Below are positions 3,830 through 29,318 of a DNA stretch of 42,788 nucleotides, piece by piece (the stretch's first letter is position 1; each line of letters begins with the position of its first letter). A program made the position numbers and the translations under genes. The notes under the pieces were generated by a model. That model did not search any database. It was given only the letters and a program-made list of their open reading frames with translations, and was not told where the DNA came from. The DNA comes from Candidatus Nanopelagicales bacterium (GTDB lineage Bacteria; Actinomycetota; Actinomycetes; S36-B12): assembly GCA_032117355.1 (NCBI GenBank), contig JAULZL010000153.1, positions 1 to 42,788 of the forward strand, in the 5' to 3' direction.

Positions 3830-3882
3830 CGTCATTACACTCGGGCAACCATCGGGTGCTACACCCGGGAGATTGGAGTGTT

Positions 3883-4605
3883 GTGCGCGCGTTGGCGTTG
3901 GCCACACTGGCCGCTGTCGGAATCCTTCTCACCGGATGTGCAACGGATTCCCGTAGTGCATCACCGTACTCCCGGGCTCCGAGTTCGGAGGGCTCGGCGG
4001 CGCCGACCCTGTCTGCTGGCGCCGACGTTGAGACCGCTGCCCCGGTCGAAGCCCCCTCCTCAGCCGAGGCGCTGATGCAGACGGGCCCGGGTTCGTGCGC
4101 GCAACAAGGGCCGTGCCGCATCGGTGACATCGGACCGGGGGGTGGCGAGGTCTTCCTTGATGCCGGGCCCGGACAGGACTGGGGGCGCTATCTCGAAGTC
4201 GCCCCTCAGGGATGGAGCGGACAATCCGAGGATCCCAAGGCTCCCTGGTGTGACGAGGCAACCCAATGGGCCGTAGCAAAGGCGCCGACCAGTGACGGTT
4301 TCGGACAAGGTCTCGCAAACGCTGAGCGGCTCTTCGAGATTCAACCGTGTGCCGAAGGTACGGCCATGTACATGGCCCGTGCCTATCGCGGGGCCGGCCT
4401 CGATGACTGGTACTTGCCCTCCAGAGGTGAGTTGACCGCGCTCAATGCTGGGTGGGACTTCCTTCCGGGCTTTGACTCTTGGTACTGGAGCTCATCGCGA
4501 AGGGGCTCCACCATGGCTTGGAGCCTGTCGTTCATTGAGTTGGGCGGGGAGAAGCCGTCTGAGTTTCCCTCAATGCTCCGGGTCCGCCCGATTCGCGCCT
4601 TCTAG
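3883..4605 (+). CDS. lipoprotein with C-terminal DUF1566 (Lcl C-terminal-like) domain
   Basis: The N-terminus VRALALATLAAVGILLTGCATDS has lipobox LTGC. The C-terminus DDWYLPSRGELTAL...SWYWSSS...AWSLSF...LRVRPIRAF fits the DUF1566 pattern (W-LP-EL, YWSS, vRpVR). The start is the GTG at 3883, preceded by a GGAG motif. Confidence 0.72.
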   Translation: MRALALATLAAVGILLTGCATDSRSASPYSRAPSSEGSAAPTLSAGADVETAAPVEAPSSAEALMQTGPGSCAQQGPCRIGDIGPGGGEVFLDAGPGQDWGRYLEVAPQGWSGQSEDPKAPWCDEATQWAVAKAPTSDGFGQGLANAERLFEIQPCAEGTAMYMARAYRGAGLDDWYLPSRGELTALNAGWDFLPGFDSWYWSSSRRGSTMAWSLSFIELGGEKPSEFPSMLRVRPIRAF

Positions 4606-5086: not shown

Positions 5087-6094
5087 CTAGTTATCGAAGT
5101 CCGGGTAATCGCCTTCGGCCGCGATTGCCCAGGTGTAGCCGGTCACCTTGGGCATCGTTGGAGTGCGCGCCGCGTCTCCTTGAACGAAGCCCGCACCCTT
5201 CAGAAGATAGGACAATCCCTCGTCCTTCGCCGCGAGTGCCCGTCCGTCGGAAACGATCCAGCCGGAGGGCAAGGCAGTCCCGGCGCGGAAGAGGCGAAGT
5301 TCACCGATCATCGGGCTGTCGGGAGCCGGCCATTTCGCAGGCGCCAGCCATGACTTGATACCGGAGCCCACCTGGTCGCCCAAGGCCACCCTGGTGAAGC
5401 CTCGCTCTGTGAAACTGGTGTCGCAAATCGAACAGTCTGATTGAATTCCCGTGAAGACGACCTGATTGGGGTAGGCGGATTCAAATCCTTCAGCGGGCCA
5501 GTTGTACTTGCTCAACATGATCTGCCAGCTCAGCGCACCAGGAACCTCCGTCGTAGGCGCAGTGAACGCAAGGGGTCCGTCTGCGGAAGGGAGGTTGAAC
5601 CAGAGTCGCGGACCGTCGGTTCGACAGCCGAAGGTGCAGGAGATCCACGGGTAGAGGGGCAGCGCACGATCGTCCTGCATGCTCAACTCCCGGCCATTCG
5701 CGAGCCGTTGCGCCGTGAGTTGACGCTTGCCGACGTGAAGGGTGAGCGTTGCCGTCTCGGGTACAGATGCCGGAGCCCTTTCATCCCAGCCCGCCATGCC
5801 CAACTTGTCGCTGGTCGCAGTGGAGATCCCACTCTCAGCGCCGGGTGATGGCGTCGCATCGATGGACTCCTCCATCGTGGCGCTCGCGGAGGCGCTTGAA
5901 CTCTCAGCGCCCGGTGATGGCGTCGCATCAATGGACTCCTCCATCGTCGCGCTTGCGGTGGCGGGCCACTGACTTGAGGCCTCGGCGGCAGCTCGCGAGG
6001 TGTTGCTGCTTCCGGCGGCTCCGCAAGCGGTGAGGAGGGCCGTCGAAACGACGACGCCAAGGATCAAAGCGAGAGGCGGTTGATTGACGCGCAT
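5087..6094 (-). CDS. lipoprotein with tandem 23-aa repeat and phage-tail-collar-like C-terminal domain
   Basis: The internal ATG at 6094 gives MRVNQPPLALILGVVVSTALLTACGAAG, with lipobox LTAC. The unit ASATMEESIDATPSPGAES occurs twice. The C-terminus MIGELRLFRAGTALPSGWIVSDGRALAAKDEGLSYLL resembles the tail-collar/MdpB motif (IGEIRxFAGxxxPxGWxxCDGxxL). Confidence 0.72.
   Translation of the reverse strand: MRVNQPPLALILGVVVSTALLTACGAAGSSNTSRAAAEASSQWPATASATMEESIDATPSPGAESSSASASATMEESIDATPSPGAESGISTATSDKLGMAGWDERAPASVPETATLTLHVGKRQLTAQRLANGRELSMQDDRALPLYPWISCTFGCRTDGPRLWFNLPSADGPLAFTAPTTEVPGALSWQIMLSKYNWPAEGFESAYPNQVVFTGIQSDCSICDTSFTERGFTRVALGDQVGSGIKSWLAPAKWPAPDSPMIGELRLFRAGTALPSGWIVSDGRALAAKDEGLSYLLKGAGFVQGDAARTPTMPKVTGYTWAIAAEGDYPDFDN
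5822..5960. repeat. 2 x 69-bp near-identical tandem repeat inside CDS 5087..6094
   Basis: The string ctctcagcgcc(c)ggtgatggcgtcgcatc(g/a)atggactcctccatcgt(g/c)gcgct occurs twice, 69 nt apart. It encodes the duplicated ASATMEESIDATPSPGAES block. Confidence 0.8.
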
Positions 6095-6234
6095 GATTGA
6101 ACTGTACGCAACAAGGTGCCCACGTGACTGAAACCCGCACAGCCCCCTTCGGCAAGTCTGAGGATGGTCCTGACGAGATGAGCCGGTTAGAGGAGTCGAT
6201 CCGGCGAGTAAGTACGCTGCGGCGACATCAGTTG

Positions 6235-6888
6235 ATGGACAGGGACGCACCCGCGACCTGGAGCGATGGTGGAAGGACGATCGTGCAAGCAGCCAGTAAG
6301 TGGGCCGGACTAGCGATGCTCGCAACAATGCCGCTGGCCGCATGCGCCGCCGAAGGCCCGGCGCGATCAGCCGCACCTGAGTCGGCTGCGGTCAGTGGTG
6401 AGGCGACGCAGCCGACGGACGGTCCTGCGGCTGAAGAAGAGCTTCTCACGGCTCAGTCGGTCAGCGGCACTCAGCCCAAGAATATTCAGGTTTGCGTGAC
6501 CAACCGATTTGACCGCGCGATCTCGATCAACAATCGCGAGGGCACGAGAACACTCGCCGTGGGCGAGGAGATATGCAGTGAGTCCGGCTACGGTGAGAAC
6601 ATCGGGTCCAGTGTCGTCGTGAGCCCCAAGCCCACATCCGAAACTCGCATCGACGTTTCTATCCGCTCAACTTGGCCGACAGCGTACCTACGTGCCTGCT
6701 GGGGCATACCCATCTGCCTTCAGAATCAGCCGACGGGATCCACCAGCCTCGAGCAGGGAGATTCCCGCTGGCTCGCTCGAGGAGACCTGCAGCTGAACAT
6801 CACGCGAACCAAAGATGAGTCCCCGCGTCGCAACGAGAATTGGCCCATCGCTCACGTGAACATCGACGTATCCGCACCCAAGAAGTAG
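6235..6888 (+). CDS. secreted lipoprotein, paralog of 1379..1969
   Basis: The signal KWAGLAMLATMPLAACAAEG has lipobox LAAC. The blocks QVCVTNRFDRAISIN / GEEICSESG / IPICLQNQ / LQLNITR...WPIAHVNIDV line up with VCLVNKTTLNASVVF / TQLCGEG / KMCLSKGFQ / VQMNVIR...WKEFEVVF in the other gene. The start could be the ATG at 6235 or the GTG at 6283. Confidence 0.65.
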   Translation: MDRDAPATWSDGGRTIVQAASKWAGLAMLATMPLAACAAEGPARSAAPESAAVSGEATQPTDGPAAEEELLTAQSVSGTQPKNIQVCVTNRFDRAISINNREGTRTLAVGEEICSESGYGENIGSSVVVSPKPTSETRIDVSIRSTWPTAYLRACWGIPICLQNQPTGSTSLEQGDSRWLARGDLQLNITRTKDESPRRNENWPIAHVNIDVSAPKK

Positions 6889-18286: not shown

Positions 18287-18565
18287 TCAGGAATCGCTTT
18301 CGGGACTAGGAGTCTTGCTTCTGCGAGAGTTCAGAACCAGGGCCCATACCGCTATGAGCGCCCAGACTGAATTGAGAACGACCGAAGCGTAGGCGACCTC
18401 GTCCAAGGCGAGTGAATAGCCGATCAAGATGATGGCCCCGGCGAGATTGAGAGCCTGATAGATCGGTGAGATGGACTTGATTCGATTGCTCGACACCAGC
18501 AGATAGGCGCCCAAAACCATGATGACGCCAACATTCCCAATCACATGTGACGTCCAGGATGGCAT
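18287..18565 (-). CDS. small 3-TM membrane protein (resembles the CBU_0592-type family)
   Basis: The sequence VIGNVGVIMVLGAYLLVSSNRIKSISPIYQALNLAGAIILIGYS...VVLNSVWALIAVWAL follows the pattern I recall for that family. The call is tentative. Confidence 0.55.
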   Translation of the reverse strand: MPSWTSHVIGNVGVIMVLGAYLLVSSNRIKSISPIYQALNLAGAIILIGYSLALDEVAYASVVLNSVWALIAVWALVLNSRRSKTPSPESDS

Positions 18566-18712
18566 TGGGGAACGCTAGCAGCGATTCTCAGGCTGCAGCA
18601 GCACTTCATATATTGGTAGCGCTCCTACATCACGGAGGAGGTGTTCACTGGACCAGAAGTTTCGTCCATCGGCAGGTTCCCCTACCCTGACCCTTAACCG
18701 AAGGAGGATCCC

Positions 18713-20062
18713 ATGACCATGACACCCGAGCGGACCGTTTCCGGCGTAACCCAGGAGCGCAACCTGGTCACAGCCATTCCCGGGCCGGTCTCCCAGGCAC
18801 TGCATGCTCGCAAGACGGCCGCCGTCTCGAGCGGCGTCGGCGTCATGCTGCCCGTGTACATCGCACAGGCTGGTGGCGGGATCCTCGTCGACGTCGACGG
18901 CAACTCAATGATTGACATGGGCTCCGGTATAGCCGTCACGACGGTCGGCAATGCCAACCCTGAGGTGGTGGCCGGCGTCCAAGAGCAGGTCGCCGCCTTC
19001 ACCCACACCTGCTTCATGGTCACGCCCTACGCCGGATACGTCGAGGTGTGCGAGGCCCTGAACCGGCTTACCCCTGGCGACCACGCCAAGCGGTCAGCCC
19101 TGTTCAACTCGGGAGCCGAGGCCGTCGAAAACGCCGTCAAGATCGCTCGGACTTACACCAAGCGACAGGCCGTCGTGGTCTTCGAGCACGGCTACCACGG
19201 ACGCACCAATCTCACGATGGGCATGACCGCGAAGAACATGCCCTACAAGCAGGGCTTCGGCCCCTTCGCACCAGAGATCTACCGGGTTCCAACCTCATAC
19301 CCCTTCCGGGACAACGGCGTTAGCGGCCCGGATATGGCCCGTATCGCGACCACTCGCATCGACAAGGAGATCGGCGCAGGCAATGTCGCCGCCATCATCA
19401 TCGAGCCGGTGCAGGGCGAGGGTGGCTTCATCGTTCCTGAGCCGGGCTTCTTCTCCGCACTTGCCGAGTACTGCCGCGCCAACGGCATCGTGTTCGTTGC
19501 GGACGAGATCCAGTCAGGGTTCTGCCGCACCGGCGATTGGTTCGCCAGCGAGCACGAGGGGGTTGTGCCAGACCTGATCACCACCGCCAAGGGCATCGCC
19601 GGCGGCCTGCCCCTCGCGGGCGTGACCGGCCGCGCCGAGATCATGGATGCCGTTCACGCCGGTGGTCTCGGCGGAACCTACGGCGGGAATCCCGTTGCCT
19701 GCGCCGGTGCCCTCGGTGCCATCCGCTGGATGGAGGAGAACGACGCCCCGGTCCTCGCTCGAGGCATTGCAGAACTCGCACTACCGCGGCTGCACGCCCT
19801 CGCATCCCAGTACCCGAGTATCGGCGACATCCGCGGCCGGGGTGCAATGCTGGCCATCGAGCTGGTCAAGCCGGGGACCACAGATCCCAACCCCGATCTG
19901 GCATCCGCGGTGAGCAGTCACTGCCACAGCAACGGGGTCGTCACCCTGACCACGGGGACCTTCGGCAATGTGCTGCGTTTCCTGCCGCCACTGACCATGC
20001 CCGAGCACCTGCTTATGGAGGCTTTCGACGTGATTGCTGACGGCTTCGCCGCAAACGCGTAG
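18713..20062 (+). CDS. gabT: 4-aminobutyrate--2-oxoglutarate transaminase (class III aminotransferase)
   Basis: The N-terminus RNLVTAIPGPVSQALHARKTAAVSSGVGVMLPVYIAQAGGGILVDVDGNSMIDMGSGIAVTTVGN and the motif FTHTCFMVTPY are very close to actinobacterial GabT. The catalytic Lys lies in the TTAKGIAGG context. A GAAGGAGGA Shine-Dalgarno sequence precedes the ATG. Confidence 0.9.
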   Translation: MTMTPERTVSGVTQERNLVTAIPGPVSQALHARKTAAVSSGVGVMLPVYIAQAGGGILVDVDGNSMIDMGSGIAVTTVGNANPEVVAGVQEQVAAFTHTCFMVTPYAGYVEVCEALNRLTPGDHAKRSALFNSGAEAVENAVKIARTYTKRQAVVVFEHGYHGRTNLTMGMTAKNMPYKQGFGPFAPEIYRVPTSYPFRDNGVSGPDMARIATTRIDKEIGAGNVAAIIIEPVQGEGGFIVPEPGFFSALAEYCRANGIVFVADEIQSGFCRTGDWFASEHEGVVPDLITTAKGIAGGLPLAGVTGRAEIMDAVHAGGLGGTYGGNPVACAGALGAIRWMEENDAPVLARGIAELALPRLHALASQYPSIGDIRGRGAMLAIELVKPGTTDPNPDLASAVSSHCHSNGVVTLTTGTFGNVLRFLPPLTMPEHLLMEAFDVIADGFAANA

Positions 20063-20073
20063 CCGTCAATCGA

Positions 20074-20640
20074 ATGTTCAAGGCGCGCGATCTTGCCCTA
20101 GTCGCAGCCTTCTCCGCACTGATCGCCCTGCTCGGTCTCCCCGGTGGGATCAGCGTGTTCGGCAGCAGCGTGCCGATCACCCTGCAGAGCATGGGTCCGA
20201 TGCTGGCGGCATCCATCCTCGGTTGGAAGCGCGGATGCGCCAGCGTGGTGGCCTTTCTCGTCCTAGTCGCAGCCGGGCTGCCACTGCTTGCCGGTGGCCG
20301 CGGGGGTCTTTCGGTCTTTGCCAGCCCCAGCCTGGGCTATCTCATCGGCTTCATCTTCGGCTCGGCGGTCATAGGTCTGATCGTGCAAGCACGACAACCC
20401 CGGTCTTCATGGTGGTGGACGGCTATGGCCAACGTCATCGGCGGTATCGGGGTCGTCTACCTTTTCGGAATCCCGATTCAGGCCGCCATCCTGGGCACCA
20501 GCGGAGTGATCGCCACCGCGATCGCTGCGACGGTGTTCCTGCCCGGAGATCTTTTCAAGGTCATCGTTGCCACCTCAGTGGCCACAGCCGTGCACCGCGC
20601 CTATCCCGACCTAACCCCGCCGCTGCGCAAAGCGCGCTGA
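20074..20640 (+). CDS. bioY: biotin transporter S component BioY (ECF substrate-binding subunit)
   Basis: Hallmark BioY motifs are present: VPITLQS, GLPLLAGG, SPSLGYLIGF and FLPGDLFK. Confidence 0.88.
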   Translation: MFKARDLALVAAFSALIALLGLPGGISVFGSSVPITLQSMGPMLAASILGWKRGCASVVAFLVLVAAGLPLLAGGRGGLSVFASPSLGYLIGFIFGSAVIGLIVQARQPRSSWWWTAMANVIGGIGVVYLFGIPIQAAILGTSGVIATAIAATVFLPGDLFKVIVATSVATAVHRAYPDLTPPLRKAR

Positions 20641-20650
20641 ACTCGACCAC

Positions 20651-21697
20651 GTGAATGCGGTTCGCGTCGCTGCAGGTGGCAATCGGCAGATCCTGGACGC
20701 TGTTCTTGACGGTCTAGCCGATGGGTCGGCATTCGCAGTTGCCCCTCCCGGTTTGACGCCCACCGTCACGGAGCTCGAAGCGGGCGAACTCCTCGTCTTC
20801 ACGAGTGGTTCCACTGGACGCGGAATCCGTCGGACGCACCGCTCATGGCTCGCCAGCCTTGAGCCCCTGACCGATGTGATCGCTGGAACGCCGGAAGACC
20901 GCATCTGGATTCCTGGGCCGTTGCACTCCACCCTCTACCTCTACGGGGCAATCCATGCCATCCACCTGACCGGGCAGGTCATCCTCGATGACGAGCCATC
21001 CGACAACGCAACCATCGTTCATGCGGTGCCGGCCCGCGCACTTCAGATTCTCGACCACCCGCCGCCGAGACTTCGCACGATCGTCGTGGCCGGCGATCAC
21101 GTCCCGGCTACGTTGCGAAGCCGCGCGGTCGACCTCGGGATCGCAGTTGTCGAGTACTACGGCGCGACGGAACTATCCTTCGTCGCCTGGTGCCGGGACG
21201 ACTCAGGGCTCAGGCCTTTCCCGGGTGTCGAGATCGAGATTCGCGACGGGTCGATATGGGCCCGCTCGCCGTACCTCGCCACCGGCTACCTGAACCCGCC
21301 CGGCGTCCCCTCCGGGCCGGCGCGATGGCGCGATGGCTGGGCGACCGTGGGAGACCAGGGTGAATTGATCGACGGGCAACTCGTCGTCCGTGGCCGGGGC
21401 GACCAAGCGATCACGGTCGGTGGCCACACCATCGTGGTCGAGGATGTCGAGGAGCACCTGCGGGTAGCGCTCGGGGTGGAGGATGTCGCCGTGACGAGCA
21501 TTGACCACGTCGGCCTCGGTGCCGTGATCGTTGCCGTGATCAGTTGCGACATTGACGAGCACGCCCGTCGCGAGGCAGCACAGCAGCTAGTGGAGCCCGC
21601 GCGCCCGCGACGGTGGGTACGTGTTGATGCCCTGCCGCGCACGAGATCGGGCAAGCTGGACCGACAAGCCCTACGTGAGATTGCGGACAACACGTGA
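20651..21697 (+). CDS. short (348 aa) ANL-superfamily adenylating enzyme / acyl-CoA ligase, MenE-like architecture
   Basis: Motifs are FTSGSTGRGIR (A3), YYGATE (A5), VGDQG...GRGDQAITVGGHTI (A7/A8) and RTRSGKLDR (A10 Lys). The N-terminal domain is truncated compared with 500+ aa ligases. The start is the GTG at 20651, 10 nt after the bioY stop. Confidence 0.85.
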   Translation: MNAVRVAAGGNRQILDAVLDGLADGSAFAVAPPGLTPTVTELEAGELLVFTSGSTGRGIRRTHRSWLASLEPLTDVIAGTPEDRIWIPGPLHSTLYLYGAIHAIHLTGQVILDDEPSDNATIVHAVPARALQILDHPPPRLRTIVVAGDHVPATLRSRAVDLGIAVVEYYGATELSFVAWCRDDSGLRPFPGVEIEIRDGSIWARSPYLATGYLNPPGVPSGPARWRDGWATVGDQGELIDGQLVVRGRGDQAITVGGHTIVVEDVEEHLRVALGVEDVAVTSIDHVGLGAVIVAVISCDIDEHARREAAQQLVEPARPRRWVRVDALPRTRSGKLDRQALREIADNT

Positions 21698-22821
21698 GGG
21701 ATTGCACGCCCGTTATCGTCGCCGCTCGCCGAACCGCGATCGGAACAGCCGGCCGAGCCCTGGCCGCCCTGAGTGTGGATGAGCTCCTGGCTCCCGTGCT
21801 GCGCGAGATCGCCCGAGAGTCACTCGGGCCGGGGGACCACGTCGATCAGGTCGTCGCCGGTATCGCACGAGGTCCGGGTGGGAATCCAGCCCGGGTCGCT
21901 GCCCTGGCTGCCGGCCTTGACCCGAACGTTGCCGCTATCACCGTGGACCTCCAGTGCGGCAGCGGGCTCGCGGCGATTTGCCTGGCAGCCGACATGGTGG
22001 CTGCCGGCAGCGCCACGATCGTCCTTGCCGGTGGGGCGGAGAGCGCCAGCAACGCCCCTGTCGGCCGGGCTCGATTCGCCCCTAGCGAGATCGGGGACCC
22101 GGACATGGGTCCAGCGGCCGAGGATCTCGCTCGGCACTTCGGGGTGAGCCGGAAGAGGCAGGACGAGTATGCGATCCGCTCCCATGAACGTGCGCTGGCC
22201 TCGCGAGAGCTGATCGCATCCGAGATCATCCCGGTCGCCGGACTCACCGAAGATCAGCGGCCCCGGCACCTAAAGGCTGAGGTCCTCGCGCGAATGCCCG
22301 CTGCCTTCGTCAGCGACGACACCAGCCCCCCCGGCACCGTCACCGCCGGCAACAGTTGCGGTATCAGCGATGGCGCCGCCGCAGTCATGATCGTCCCGGA
22401 GTGGTGGCGCGCCGAGCGCCGGATGACCGGACTAGCCATGCGCTCATGGGCCACGGTCGGGGTTGATCCGCGACTGCCAGGCATCGGGCCCGTGCCGGCC
22501 ATCACCCGCATCCTTGCCGCTACGTCCCTGACCCTCGACGAGCTTGATGTTCTCGAGATAACCGAGGCCTTCGCTGCCCAGGTCCTCAGCGTGACCGACG
22601 CCCTTGGCCTCGACGCACTGGGTTCAGACGCGGGCCGGGTCTGCCCATTCGGCGGCGCAATTGCCATCGGCCATCCATGGGGAGCGTCGGGTGCGGTGCT
22701 GATGGTGCGGCTTTTCACCCTGCTCGTGCGCCATTCGGATGGCAGACGGGTTGGCGCCGCGGCATGTGCGGTCGGCGGAGGTCAGGGTATCGCCGCTCTC
22801 GTGGAGCGCACCGATGGCTGA
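21694..22821 (+). CDS. thiolase (acetyl-CoA C-acyl/acetyltransferase family)
   Basis: The catalytic set is complete: LQCGSGLAAI (nucleophilic Cys), GNSCGISDGAAAVM, IGHPWGASG (His) and CAVGGGQG (Cys). The GTG start overlaps the ligase stop (GTGA). Confidence 0.9.
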   Translation: MRDCTPVIVAARRTAIGTAGRALAALSVDELLAPVLREIARESLGPGDHVDQVVAGIARGPGGNPARVAALAAGLDPNVAAITVDLQCGSGLAAICLAADMVAAGSATIVLAGGAESASNAPVGRARFAPSEIGDPDMGPAAEDLARHFGVSRKRQDEYAIRSHERALASRELIASEIIPVAGLTEDQRPRHLKAEVLARMPAAFVSDDTSPPGTVTAGNSCGISDGAAAVMIVPEWWRAERRMTGLAMRSWATVGVDPRLPGIGPVPAITRILAATSLTLDELDVLEITEAFAAQVLSVTDALGLDALGSDAGRVCPFGGAIAIGHPWGASGAVLMVRLFTLLVRHSDGRRVGAAACAVGGGQGIAALVERTDG

Positions 22822-23494
22822 GATCGTCTTCGATCAGGTGAGCCACCACTTCGGTTCACGCCAGGTCCTCAGCGAGGTAGACCTGACGCTGAGCGGTCCC
22901 CGGATCGGGATCATCGGAGCCAACGGCTCGGGCAAGTCAACCCTGGTGCGAATGATCAACGGTCTCATCGATCCAAGCCAGGGCAGGGTCTTGGTGGACG
23001 GCCTCGACACCGCACGGGACGGTCATAAGGTGCGCCGACTCGTCTCCTTCCTGTTCTCTGATCCCGATGCCCAGATCGTCATGCCCACGGTCGCGGAGGA
23101 CATCGCGTTTTCCCTGCGGCGTCAGCGGCTCGCTCCGGAACGGGTGGCAGAGCACGTTGAGGCCGCCCTGCGCATGGTCGGCCTTCTCGACTACTCGACA
23201 CACCCAGCTCACCTACTTTCCAGTGGCCAAAAGCAGTTGCTGGCCATGGCCTCCGTGCTGGTCACCGAGCCACGCGTGCTGATCTGCGACGAGCCAACCA
23301 CGCTGTTGGACCTCGCCAACACCCGCACCATCACCGGAATCATCGACACCCTTCCGCAGCAGGTCGTCATGGTGACCCATGACCTGTCCCTAGTAGAGGA
23401 CTGGGAGCGGGTGATCGTCGTTCATGAGGGTCGCATCGCGGCCGACACCAACGGGACGCAAGCAGTCCCCTTCTATCGATCGCTGCTGTCATGA
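22814..23494 (+). CDS. bioM: ECF transporter ATPase (single A component, BioM-type)
   Basis: Motifs are GANGSGKST, LSSGQKQLLAMA and LICDEPTTLLD. The ATG at 22814 overlaps the thiolase stop (ATGGCTGA). Confidence 0.86.
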   Translation: MAEIVFDQVSHHFGSRQVLSEVDLTLSGPRIGIIGANGSGKSTLVRMINGLIDPSQGRVLVDGLDTARDGHKVRRLVSFLFSDPDAQIVMPTVAEDIAFSLRRQRLAPERVAEHVEAALRMVGLLDYSTHPAHLLSSGQKQLLAMASVLVTEPRVLICDEPTTLLDLANTRTITGIIDTLPQQVVMVTHDLSLVEDWERVIVVHEGRIAADTNGTQAVPFYRSLLS

Positions 23495-24096
23495 CCCCCG
23501 CATTGATCGGCATCTACCGGCCCGGTACGTCGCCCCTTCATCGTGCACGTGCGGGGGCCAAGTTGGTCATGCTGCTGCTCCTCACCAGCCTGCTTCTTGC
23601 CTGGCGATCGGTGCCGACCGTCCTGTTGGCCATCGCGCTCACCGTTGGCCTATACGCACTCGCCGGCCTCTCACCCAAGGTGCTTATCCAGCAAGCCTGG
23701 CCACTTCGCTGGTTCATCCTGCTTCTCGTCCCCCTTCAGGTGCTGCTGAGCGGCTGGCAGGTGGCCGTGACGATCGTCGGGACGATGATCATCGCCGTCC
23801 TGCTTGCCAGCCTGGTCAGCCTGACGACGACCACAACGCAGATCCTCGATGCCATTGAGGGGTTGCTTCGGCCGCTGCCCGATCAGGTCGCACGGCGCAT
23901 CGCACTGCTCCTTGCCTTGACCATTCGCGCCATCCCCGTCATCGCTGGCCTAGCCGATGAGGTCCAGCAGGCACGACGCGCTCGCGGAATGGAGCGAAGC
24001 CCCCGTGCCTATGTCACCCCCGTCGTGCTGCGCACCATTGGATACTCGCAGCGCCTTGGAGAGGCACTGGTCGCACGCGGGGTGGATGACCAGTAG
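23491..24096 (+). CDS. bioN: ECF transporter transmembrane T component (BioN/CbiQ-type)
   Basis: The protein opens with YRPGTSPLHRARAGAKL and has 4-5 TM segments plus the C-terminal ARRARG coupling-helix motif. Its start overlaps the ATPase stop (ATGA). Confidence 0.8.
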   Translation: MTPALIGIYRPGTSPLHRARAGAKLVMLLLLTSLLLAWRSVPTVLLAIALTVGLYALAGLSPKVLIQQAWPLRWFILLLVPLQVLLSGWQVAVTIVGTMIIAVLLASLVSLTTTTTQILDAIEGLLRPLPDQVARRIALLLALTIRAIPVIAGLADEVQQARRARGMERSPRAYVTPVVLRTIGYSQRLGEALVARGVDDQ

Positions 24097-24127
24097 GGGG
24101 GTGACGACCGGGGAATAGGCTCCGGCC

Positions 24128-24805
24128 GTGGCCAAGCCGTTGGAGGATCTCGTCCATCCGACCTGGGTTCCCGCCCTAGACGGTGAACGGGACACCCTCA
24201 CTGAGATCGGTGAGTTCCTCCGATCAGAAGCCCAGCAAGGTCGGCCATGGTTTCCGTCCGGCGACGTGATTCTGCGGGCCTTCCAGCGCCCCCTGCCCGA
24301 TGTTCGGGTTCTGATAACCGGTCAGGATCCTTACCCGACACCTGGTCATGCGATGGGGCTGTCCTTCTCAGTGGCACCGGCGGTACGACCCCTGCCGCGA
24401 AGCCTGCAGAACATCGTGACGGAATTGGTGAGCGACCTTGGGGTACCAAAACCCTCGAATGGCGACCTCACGCCCTGGGCCGACCAGGGGGTGCTGCTGC
24501 TGAATCGGGTCCTGACCGTGCAGTCCGGCGAACCTGGAAGTCATCGGGGCATCGGCTGGGAACGGGTGACCGATGCGGCGATCCGCGGCCTGGTCGATCG
24601 AGCCGACGAGCCGCTCGTAGCCATCCTGTGGGGCAGGGATGCGCAGTCACTCGAGCCTGCCCTGCCCGATATCCCGATCATCGCCAGCGCCCACCCGAGC
24701 CCGATGTCAGCTGACCGCGGCTTTTTCGGCTCACGACCGTTCAGTACTGCGAATGAGTACCTCGAGGATCTCGGCGGCGAGCCAATCGACTGGGAACTTC
24801 CCTAG
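24128..24805 (+). CDS. ung: uracil-DNA glycosylase, family 1
   Basis: Motifs are [27 protein letters not shown] and SAHPSPMSA. Confidence 0.92.
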
Positions 24806-28313: not shown

Positions 28314-28778
28314 GTGCCGAGTCCTTTCCGCAAGGACCAGCTATCACCCCAGATGGCTCGCCGCTATGGGATGGATCGGAGCTCCACCGGCACCGTCCTG
28401 TTGTCCCTGGTCGTCATCCTGTCCTTCGCACTCGCCCTTGGATGGGCGACCATCGCCCTGACGCGGGATTCGATTGCGGTGACCATGCAGTCCTGGACGG
28501 TCCGCGGGGACCGGGTCGATGTCGCATTCACCGTCCGAAGCGGAAGTGGGCAACCCCTTATCTGCGTAATTCGGGCCCAGGATCGAAGCAGGGCGGACGT
28601 CGGTTACGCGACGATGACCGTACCTGCGGGGCAGGGATCCGCGCGGTACGCCCTGCGAATCATCGCCCCGGCCTTTGTCACCGAGATCCTCGGGTGCGCG
28701 GCCGGCGAGGCTCCACGGGTCATCGGCCCGCAATTTCCCGCTGGCGTCGTCCCCCCTCAACAGCCGTGGACCGACTGA
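28314..28778 (+). CDS. DUF4307 domain protein
   Basis: The GTG at 28314 is preceded by AGGAGGA. The protein has a single TM segment followed by a beta-rich domain. Its position between mca and greA is the usual actinobacterial synteny. Confidence 0.72.
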   Translation: MPSPFRKDQLSPQMARRYGMDRSSTGTVLLSLVVILSFALALGWATIALTRDSIAVTMQSWTVRGDRVDVAFTVRSGSGQPLICVIRAQDRSRADVGYATMTVPAGQGSARYALRIIAPAFVTEILGCAAGEAPRVIGPQFPAGVVPPQQPWTD

Positions 28779-28829
28779 ACTGACCGATTCCTGGCGGCGG
28801 TTGAGCCTGTAAGCGGTTAGCCTTCCTTC

Positions 28830-29318
28830 ATGAGCATCGAGGTGACCTGGCTGACCCAGGAGGGCTATGACCGGCTGGCGGCCGAACTCGCCGACCGAAT
28901 GGGTCCACGTCGGCAGGAGATCACCAAGCGGATCGAAGCGGCCCGCGAGGAGGGTGATCTCAAGGAGAACGGTGGCTATCACGCTGCCAAGGAGGAGCAG
29001 GGCAAGAACGAGGCTCGGGTCAGAGTCCTCAAGCACCTCCTCGAGAACGCCCAGATCGGCGCTCCGGATGCCGAGCACGATGAGGTCTCGCACGGCAAGG
29101 TCGTCACCGTTCGCTTCCCGGATCTAGACGAGGAAGAGACCTTCCTGCTCGGCTCCCGGGAGGAGGCCGCACATGCGTCCATCGAGGTCTACTCGCCAAC
29201 CTCCCCCCTCGGCGCTGCCGTTCTTGGCAAGCGCGTCGGCCAGGACGCAACGTACGCCCTCGCGAACGGCAAAGAGATGACCGTCGAGATCCTCAAGGTT
29301 GAGGCCTACGCCCACTAG
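28830..29318 (+). CDS. greA: transcription elongation factor GreA
   Basis: The sequence VTWLTQEGYDRLAAEL...AREEGDLKENGGYHAAKEEQG matches GreA. Confidence 0.95.
   Translation: MSIEVTWLTQEGYDRLAAELADRMGPRRQEITKRIEAAREEGDLKENGGYHAAKEEQGKNEARVRVLKHLLENAQIGAPDAEHDEVSHGKVVTVRFPDLDEEETFLLGSREEAAHASIEVYSPTSPLGAAVLGKRVGQDATYALANGKEMTVEILKVEAYAH

Follow-up and report, generated by a model that had tools for sequence, protein, structure and literature searches.

The operon considered here occupies positions 20074 to 24096 of a 42,788-nucleotide (nt) stretch of a contig from a Candidatus Nanopelagicales bacterium (JAULZL010000153.1, assembly GCA_032117355.1); this whole stretch of DNA is referred to as the window. 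It comprises five genes, encoding in order an S component of the BioY family, a short acid-coenzyme A (CoA) ligase, a thiolase, a single ATPase of the energy-coupling factor (ECF) type and an ECF T component (Table 1). Read from the DNA, the TGA stop codon of bioY is separated by 10 nt from the GTG start codon of the ligase gene, and the three remaining junctions are overlaps: GTGA between ligase and thiolase, ATGGCTGA between thiolase and bioM, and ATGA between bioM and bioN. The bioM start is the ATG inside ATGGCTGA, in agreement with the point at which homologues begin to align. A preliminary description of this DNA, made from its letters alone, had proposed a five-gene unit on one strand; the open reading frames (ORFs) and junctions were confirmed at the positions that it gave, and the unit is both tightly coupled and conserved. 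Translational coupling of all five genes is well supported.

Table 1. Genes of the operon and features immediately upstream of it (window coordinates)
Feature	Position	Strand	Length or form	Best-supported assignment
bioY	20074-20640	+	188 aa	Pfam BioY PF02632, E 2e-34, 118.9 bits vs cut-off 25
Short ANL acid-CoA ligase, YhfT-like	20651-21697	+	348 aa	Pfam AMP-binding and AMP-binding_C
Thiolase, YhfS-like	21694-22821	+	375 aa	Pfam Thiolase_N and Thiolase_C
bioM, single ECF-type ABC ATPase	22814-23494	+	226 aa	Pfam ABC_tran
bioN, ECF T component	23491-24096	+	201 aa	Pfam CbiQ PF02361, E 9e-14
gabT-like class-III aminotransferase gene	18713-20062	+		NCBIfam NF004714, 739 bits vs cut-off 639
Inverted repeat	20038-20068	+	12-nt arms, one mismatch, 7-nt loop	Spans gabT stop codon

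The families of the outer genes, their common strand and their overlapping stop and start codons agree with the earlier assignment to a dedicated ECF system of the BioY/BioM/BioN type. The window BioY aligns to Lactococcus lactis BioY (4dve) with an E value of 2e-19 and 35% identity. Its identity to the BioY proteins encoded ahead of ligase-thiolase pairs in Bacillus, Leptolyngbya, Azospirillum, Paracoccus, and Rhodococcus is 38-50%, and the GGRGG and PGDxxK motifs are retained. For bioM, the ECF_ATPase_1/2 and CbiO models are the top NCBIfam matches, all of them under their cut-offs, and bioN follows bioM in 67 of the related loci. The operon resembles the group I bioYMN and bioMNY operons of the Corynebacterium glutamicum type in that it combines BioY with a single ABC ATPase gene and a single T component of the CbiQ type. 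However, canonical BioYMN operons consist of three genes and no enzymes, whereas in the window two enzyme genes are coupled into the middle of the set. The dedicated actinobacterial system of C. glutamicum imports biotin (PMC3398298). From family membership, we infer biotin as the substrate of the window BioY. The literature on the acI lineage describes biotin auxotrophy with a solitary BioY, and its coverage excludes the metagenome-assembled genomes (MAGs) that bear the present operon.

The ligase is one of a family of short (~350-380 residues) ANL enzymes, in the alignment of which SWxAS, YGA.H, EYYGAxELSF, WATVxD and the A10 lysine are invariant. The preliminary description had counted motifs A3, A5, A7/8 and the A10 lysine as all present. 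This holds for A5 (EYYGATELS), A7 (TVGD), A8 (GRGDQAITVGG) and the A10 lysine (in SGKLDR), but the A3 P-loop, residues 50-58, reads TSGSTG--RG and is two residues shorter than the TSGSTGxPRG of the family, a deletion that, in the alignment, only P0003 shares, the closest relative at 79% identity. The AlphaFold model of the ligase is confident, with a pLDDT score (the predicted value of the local distance difference test) of 89 and a predicted template modeling (pTM) score of 0.83. Among solved structures, its nearest neighbors in a Foldseek search are MenE, the amide synthetase McbA and the malonyl-CoA synthetase MatB, and a 350-residue structural-genomics ANL protein is also among the matches. 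The position of the ligase near MenE and MatB is a weak hint of a dicarboxylate substrate.

Both by solved structure and by sequence, MenE is among the nearest matches (E. coli enzyme, E 5e-17), and some actinobacterial MenE models are also short (PRK07824, 362 positions). MenE was nevertheless ruled out. The ligase reaches only about one third of the MenE cut-offs (TIGR01923, 90 bits as compared with 330; PRK07824, 110 bits as compared with 345), it does not group with MenE, the position of Arg195 of the E. coli enzyme aligns to Ala/His with no Arg, there are no men genes in the window, and the conserved partners of the ligase are bioY and the thiolase gene. The separation from MenE on which the preliminary description depended was therefore upheld.

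In the thiolase, alignment to the Cupriavidus necator thiolase (4o99) locates the nucleophilic Cys (in QCGSGL), the His (in GHPWG) and the second Cys (in CAVGGG), so that the Cys/His/Cys set claimed earlier is indeed complete. Of the thiolase fingerprints, CxS, GHP and CxG are present, but the fourth, NEAF, is altered to TEAF. Thr replaces the Asn of this motif in 64 of 73 related BioY-linked thiolases (loci L001-L083), with Val, Met or Gln in a few others, and the Asn is kept in the thiolases of Azospirillum, Leptolyngbya, and Bacillus. The window protein is also ~20 residues shorter than the C. necator enzyme between residues 122 and 137 of the latter, which we take to be the site of the tetramerization loop. 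It scores 306 bits against TIGR01930, above the cut-off. With its fold and Cys/His/Cys set intact, the enzyme is still likely to carry out chemistry of the thiolase type.

The conservation of the operon was surveyed by scanning one genome per GTDB species, which yielded 289 relatives, and by searching the best 80 loci for gene order with the five window proteins. All 80 loci are from Actinomycetota, and the carriers include Nakamurella, Dermatophilaceae, Agromyces, Rhodococcus, Kineosporia, Leifsonia, Quadrisphaera, and Nanopelagicales MAGs. The five-gene arrangement is conserved far beyond chance, since the order bioY-ligase-thiolase-bioM-bioN is complete and colinear in 63 of the 80 and a further 15 hold colinear fragments, mostly cut by contig ends. 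Of the remaining two, one has an inverted segment and the other lacks adjacent bioY, bioM and bioN. The ligase-thiolase pair is linked to bioY in 78 loci, and the median gaps are 5 nt between ligase and thiolase genes and -4 nt both between thiolase gene and bioM and between bioM and bioN. The order that the preliminary description had reported for one genome is thus not unique to it.

Several of these loci depart from the common plan or carry additional genes. An ORF of ~636 residues lies between bioM and bioN in Leifsonia sp. Root4 (L077, 8900-10810), and in one MAG (L037, 5674-8308) the thiolase-bioM-bioN segment is inverted relative to bioY-ligase, possibly as an assembly artifact. In a Rhodococcus locus (L064, 9266-10717) bioN is followed by a second ANL ligase gene, an ORF of 483 residues with 34% identity to the window ligase in the part that aligns. 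Ten loci, including several from Nakamurella (L024, L031, L035, L043, L045, L046, L058, L062, L063, and L068), have a gene of ~287 residues just upstream of bioY and on the opposite strand; judged by eye, its sequence looks like that of an α/β-hydrolase, the fold of BioH-type esterases, and its position is perhaps mere synteny.

Outside the Actinomycetota, a translated search of plasmid records with the window ligase found short AMP-binding proteins on plasmids of Alphaproteobacteria that are 31-35% identical to it over ~95% of its length. Their genes occur as bioY-ligase-thiolase in Paracoccus yeei, as bioM-bioN-bioY-ligase-thiolase-MFS in Azospirillum oryzae, and as ligase-thiolase in Marivivens, in which nitroreductase-bioY-bioN-bioM is adjacent on the opposite strand. 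The full-length Azospirillum ligase, used as a query, returned only Alphaproteobacteria and Cyanobacteria; in the cyanobacterium Leptolyngbya, a CbiQ gene and a small gene precede BioY-ligase-thiolase. No Bacillota were reached with the Azospirillum query, and the link to that phylum came instead from a search of cluster representatives with the thiolase, described below. In four of the five lineages examined, the ligase gene directly follows bioY, often with a stop/start overlap, and in Marivivens bioY and the pair lie next to each other on opposite strands. BioY proteins that accompany such a pair are 37-59% identical across phyla, as compared with 30-39% identity to L. lactis BioY. A gene of the nitroreductase family lies directly beside the cluster in both Marivivens and P. 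yeei (L081, 8144-8815; L082, 7368-8039). Rhizobium plasmids have a thioesterase-ligase-thiolase set without bioY, beside a zinc alcohol dehydrogenase gene (L084, 5525-8683; L085, 5396-8509). The Rhizobium ligase, a more distant relative, is 36-41% identical to that of Azospirillum and may represent a related pathway detached from the transporter; a Tistrella relative has yet another gene context.

These distributions bear on a rival explanation of the operon, namely that the two enzyme genes, for example a copy of menE or fadA, are chance passengers in a bioYMN operon. The weak similarity of the ligase to MenE models is what such a passenger might display. However, the MenE cut-offs are missed threefold and the Arg at the position of Arg195 is lacking, the linkage to bioY is nearly universal among the actinobacterial loci and reappears with other gene orders in three other phyla, and protein identities of 40-68% among loci speak against one recently transferred element. 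Chance association is extremely improbable, and we regard it as ruled out by the conservation data.

The link to Bacillota identifies a known counterpart of the operon. When the window thiolase was run with HMMER against 1.84 billion cluster representatives, rank 21 was a 365-residue protein with 247 bits and 43% identity, as compared with ~200 bits for generic thiolases. Its cluster consists of Bacillaceae proteins named acetyl-CoA C-acyltransferase (Bacillus, Neobacillus, and Priestia). The corresponding locus of a Bacillus sp. (L089) encodes a BioY of 192 residues, an ANL ligase of 488 residues, a thiolase of 365 residues and two small MaoC-like hot-dog proteins. The window proteins are 38-39% (BioY), 29% (ligase, E 2e-35, family motifs shared) and 41% (thiolase, E 3e-80) identical to these, and the thiolases share the stretch RFxPxxIGDPDMGxAAE. 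Residue 50 of the window ligase aligns to residue 150 of the Bacillus ligase, which means that ~100 N-terminal residues are missing from the window protein or compressed in it. The hot-dog genes overlap each other after the thiolase gene (6095-6843; one FAS1_DH_region-like, one MaoC_dehydratase), which suggests a heteromeric enoyl-CoA hydratase in the pathway there.

The Bacillus ligase and thiolase pass the equivalog cut-offs of the NCBIfam models PRK07638 (626 bits as compared with 518) and PRK06690 (603 as compared with 498). The same two models are the best specific matches of the window pair, which scores under both cut-offs (125 bits for the ligase and 299 for the thiolase), as they are of the Azospirillum, Paracoccus and Marivivens proteins. 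The window pair is thus distantly related within the YhfT/YhfS family and falls clearly short of equivalog level. In B. subtilis, BirA binds three operators, those of bioWAFDBI, yuiG and yhfUTS (PMC4016012), and in Staphylococcus aureus it represses bioO, bioY and yhfS-yhfT (PMC6391492, PMC7235819). According to the literature, YhfU is paralogous to BioY, YhfT is homologous to ligases and YhfS to thiolases. The connection between the window and yhfUTS was made through the gene order and operator of the related Bacillus locus and not through B. subtilis sequences. The preliminary description had taken the composition of the operon to be undescribed. That view has to be abandoned because BioY paralogue, ligase and thiolase are the yhfUTS genes of the B. 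subtilis BirA regulon, and experiments have shown that BirA controls yhfUTS as well as the yhfS-yhfT genes of S. aureus (PMC4016012, PMC6391492). As a kind of system, a ligase-thiolase pair that is linked to BioY and regulated by biotin is already known.

The two arrangements have the three families and their order in common. Biotin-responsive control is by BirA in Bacilli and through a BioQ box in the five-gene copies of Rhodococcus; no such operator was found in the window. They differ in that the window pair lies between bioY and dedicated bioM-bioN genes, whereas Bacilli use a shared EcfAA'T module. The window ligase is also shorter at its N terminus by ~100-140 residues than ligases of the yhfUTS type, and its partner thiolase has TEAF in place of NEAF. 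The genes yhfS and yhfT have been listed as biotin-regulated since 2002, for two decades, and we found no assigned function for them in the searchable literature, nor any mention there of the model numbers PRK07638 and PRK06690.

Regulatory sites place several of the relatives among the biotin genes. For biotin genes of actinobacteria, TGAAC-N3-GTTCA has been proposed as the BioQ operator (PMC3398298). This box occurs in perfect form four times in all 92 loci (~1 Mb), each time within ~260 nt upstream of the bioY of a five-gene operon; three copies are in Rhodococcus/Rhodococcoides loci and one is in a Dermatophilaceae locus. The site in the Rhodococcus locus L064, cTTGAACGTCGTTCAAg, is ~25 nt before the bioY start. 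In the Bacillus locus L089, an inverted repeat with 14-nt arms, TCTTAATTGTTAAC-N15-GTTGACATTTAAGA, lies ~60 nt upstream of bioY, and a second Bacillaceae locus with ligase and thiolase genes only is preceded by a perfect ATTGTAAAC-N14-GTTTACAAT. Both repeats are of the BirA operator form. When palindromes and 8-mers were sought de novo upstream of bioY in the 80 loci, no shared element emerged apart from the BioQ box in a few lineages, and none of the three alphaproteobacterial loci contains the BioR box TTATMKATAA. For some relatives, membership of the biotin regulon is thus established from the DNA, and we infer it for the window operon. Because of the BioQ operators in Rhodococcus and the BirA-type operators of the Bacillaceae copies, the module in these relatives belongs to the biotin regulon where such regulators exist and would be switched on when biotin is scarce.

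Taken together, gene families, order and neighbors indicate that the window operon is very probably the actinobacterial form of a module found in several phyla, which comprises a BioY importer, a YhfT-type ligase and a YhfS-type thiolase. The role of the enzyme pair is a separate matter. A part in supplying pimeloyl-CoA is a tentative proposal, less probable than not, although it is the role that we prefer and that the preliminary description had put forward; the combined statement of module identity and pimeloyl role is one that we consider plausible while still short of probable. A biotin or pimeloyl-CoA role for yhfS-yhfT was reportedly discussed by Rodionov et al. in 2002. According to the proposal, BioYMN would import biotin, the ligase would adenylate a carboxylic acid and convert it to its CoA thioester, and the thiolase would add or remove one acetyl-CoA unit at the level of a 3-oxoacyl-CoA, with the remaining steps left to housekeeping enzymes of β-oxidation or reduction. 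The product would be the C7 dicarboxyl thioester pimeloyl-CoA for BioF, reached by supply or by salvage, and its possible sources include an odd-chain dicarboxylate such as azelate, shortened by two carbons, or glutaryl-CoA condensed with acetyl-CoA.

The pimeloyl proposal is preferred on the grounds of the link to the biotin regulon, the dicarboxylate-activating relatives of the ligase, an analogy to BioZ and the unsettled origin of pimelate. There is a precedent for the chemistry in the pimFABCDE operon of Rhodopseudomonas palustris, in which PimA is an ANL dicarboxylate-CoA ligase and PimB a thiolase that interconverts 3-oxopimeloyl-CoA with glutaryl-CoA plus acetyl-CoA; that operon is catabolic and includes genes for the dehydrogenase and hydratase steps as well. 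The window pair is likened to PimA and PimB by description, as a combination of ligase and thiolase, and not by sequence. In Pfam and NCBIfam, the window enzymes belong to the ANL and thiolase families only, and they have no homology to BioC/BioH, BioI, BioW or BioZ. BioW is without the typical acyl-CoA synthetase motifs and BioZ is FabH-like (PMC11089781). The BioZ/CaiB route of Alphaproteobacteria, which leads to pimeloyl-acyl carrier protein (ACP), is similar in its proposed logic, a Claisen extension of glutaryl-CoA to a 3-oxo-C7 thioester (PMC11089781). However, BioZ is a FabH-like 3-oxoacyl-ACP synthase III (KAS III) that uses malonyl-ACP, not a thiolase acting with acetyl-CoA, and its likeness to the window pair is not one of homology. 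According to a 2024 review, it is not known for B. subtilis or for any other strain where pimelate comes from (PMC11089781).

A number of observations weigh against a role in pimeloyl-CoA supply. Deletion of bioW makes B. subtilis biotin-deficient despite the presence of yhfTS (PMC11089781), which implies that, in B. subtilis at least, the pair does not supply pimeloyl-CoA from internal metabolites. Azospirillum lipoferum strain 4B carries the cluster, and A. lipoferum was grown with added biotin whereas A. brasilense was grown without it (PMC3245306), so that the pair does not obviously confer prototrophy. None of bioF, bioA, bioD and bioB adjoins the operon in any of the 80 loci, whose flanks are lineage-specific housekeeping genes, or occurs in the window, and neither a BioQ nor a BirA operator was found in the window. 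By themselves, a ligase and a thiolase do not amount to a pathway, most of the actinobacterial thiolases have Thr in place of the catalytic-loop Asn of NEAF, and a search of the literature found no enzymology or genetics of the pair for any organism. Finally, YhfU, the BioY paralogue of B. subtilis, has been reported on genetic grounds to be the pantothenate S component PanU (PMC11487621). The assignment of the window protein to the BioY family stands, but in view of that report the word unambiguous, used for it as a biotin S component in the preliminary description, was too strong.

The same report raises the alternative that the S component is not specific for biotin but carries pantothenate or several vitamins, and that the enzymes are tied to the economy of CoA and pantothenate. 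A panC yhfU double mutant of B. subtilis cannot use external pantothenate (PMC11487621), and the window BioY is slightly closer to the BioY of the Bacillus yhfUTS type than to the biotin-binding protein of L. lactis (38-39% as compared with 35% identity). We nevertheless consider a pantothenate function very unlikely here because the BioY-family motifs are kept in the window protein, BioYMN of C. glutamicum carries biotin (PMC3398298), and BioQ and BirA operators connect the module to biotin sensing.

A further alternative is that the pair processes what BioY imports: the ligase would trap or activate a carboxylic vitamer as its CoA thioester and the thiolase would alter the side chain by two carbons, for example in extending bisnorbiotin towards biotin or in trimming a longer analogue. 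This would make it a salvage branch and not a route of precursor synthesis. Several of the findings described above can be read in this way, including the position of the ligase gene right after bioY in most lineages, the placement of the enzymes inside the transporter operon in Actinomycetota, the closer relationship of pair-linked BioY proteins to one another across phyla than to L. lactis BioY, the lack of linked bioFADB genes, and the presence of the cluster in A. lipoferum, which was grown with added biotin. The two MaoC-like hot-dog hydratase genes in one Bacillus operon would likewise fit chain-modifying chemistry. On the other hand, we know of no salvage route of this kind, biotin degradation under starvation would be senseless, and extension driven by a thiolase would run uphill and require reductases and a thioesterase that are not encoded in the operon. 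Processing of the imported cargo is therefore unlikely as an account of the pair, and its fuller form, in which the enzymes act on the cargo of BioY as a vitamer-salvage branch that turns environmental breakdown products or analogues of biotin into usable biotin, is decidedly so. A less radical version would return to the pimeloyl thioester, to which the pair may provide a fifth, thiolase-based route.

The enzymes could also serve to spare biotin. Without biotin, acetyl-CoA carboxylase would leave the cell short of malonyl-CoA; the ligase would then activate external fatty acids and the thiolase would provide condensation or cleavage of C2 units independently of malonyl-CoA, so that lipid supply would be bridged until biotin is imported. 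Regulons of other cofactors often include such cofactor-independent bypass enzymes. BioQ or BirA regulates the pair together with biotin uptake (PMC6391492), and its members bear the names of fatty-acid enzymes in databases and review texts (PMC5640590). However, the ligase is nearest to enzymes of the MenE/MatB type and not to characterized long-chain FadD, and its N-terminal domain is reduced. Bacillus and Staphylococcus incorporate external fatty acids through FakAB/PlsX and not by way of acyl-CoA. The consistent order of bioY and then ligase across phyla would also be left unexplained, and a sparing function is accordingly rather improbable.

Whichever of these roles applies, the operon sharpens an old question and does not open a new category. 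In the searchable literature, we found no description of the pair inside a dedicated BioYMN operon or of its breadth in Actinomycetota, nor of its recurrence in Alphaproteobacteria and Cyanobacteria, the shortened ligase or the TEAF thiolase. The presence of the same enzyme pair in the dedicated biotin importer operon of hundreds of actinobacterial species, its linkage to bioY in four phyla and the BioQ operator ahead of the operon in Rhodococcus turn what was a Bacillus curiosity into a well-posed problem, for which Rhodococcus, Bacillus and Azospirillum are tractable hosts. Solving it would either add a way of making or bypassing pimeloyl-CoA or reveal vitamin salvage of a new kind, and would also correct the generic annotation of these proteins as fatty-acid ligase and thiolase.

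The gabT-like gene ends 11 nt before the bioY start, and a scan of positions 18300 to 24400 found a single σ70-like site, at 18585-18614 upstream of gabT, and neither a promoter-like nor a terminator-like site in the gap between gabT and bioY. Because the gap is short and has no promoter-like site, the transcription unit may extend beyond the five genes, with gabT at its head. The order gabT-bioY-ligase is also found in a relative whose ligase is 99% identical, and at locus L004 gabT is upstream of bioY but on the opposite strand; the adjacency of gabT and bioY is specific to the lineage of the window. Enzymes of the GabT type can also act in the metabolism of 5-aminovalerate and glutarate, which would fit a glutaryl-CoA source. 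The inverted repeat at the gabT stop codon folds as RNA with -20.4 kcal/mol, which is not better than shuffled sequence (z = -1.1), and the stem-loop was dropped on this account as a candidate terminator or operator.

Scans of the whole window gave no Rfam match and no tRNA. Its other genes encode transporters, a P-type ATPase, a PfkB kinase, SURF1, a PIG-L deacetylase and similar proteins, and three sizeable ORFs, at 3856-4605 (+), 5087-6376 (-) and 28344-29093 (-), have no Pfam match at E ≤ 1e-5. The start of ung is 31 nt downstream of bioN. On the other side, a small membrane protein gene occupies 18287-18565 on the minus strand; its counterpart in the 99% relative belongs to the Pfam CBU_0592 family, and at L004 a homologue (~5109-5395) lies directly upstream of bioY on the same strand.

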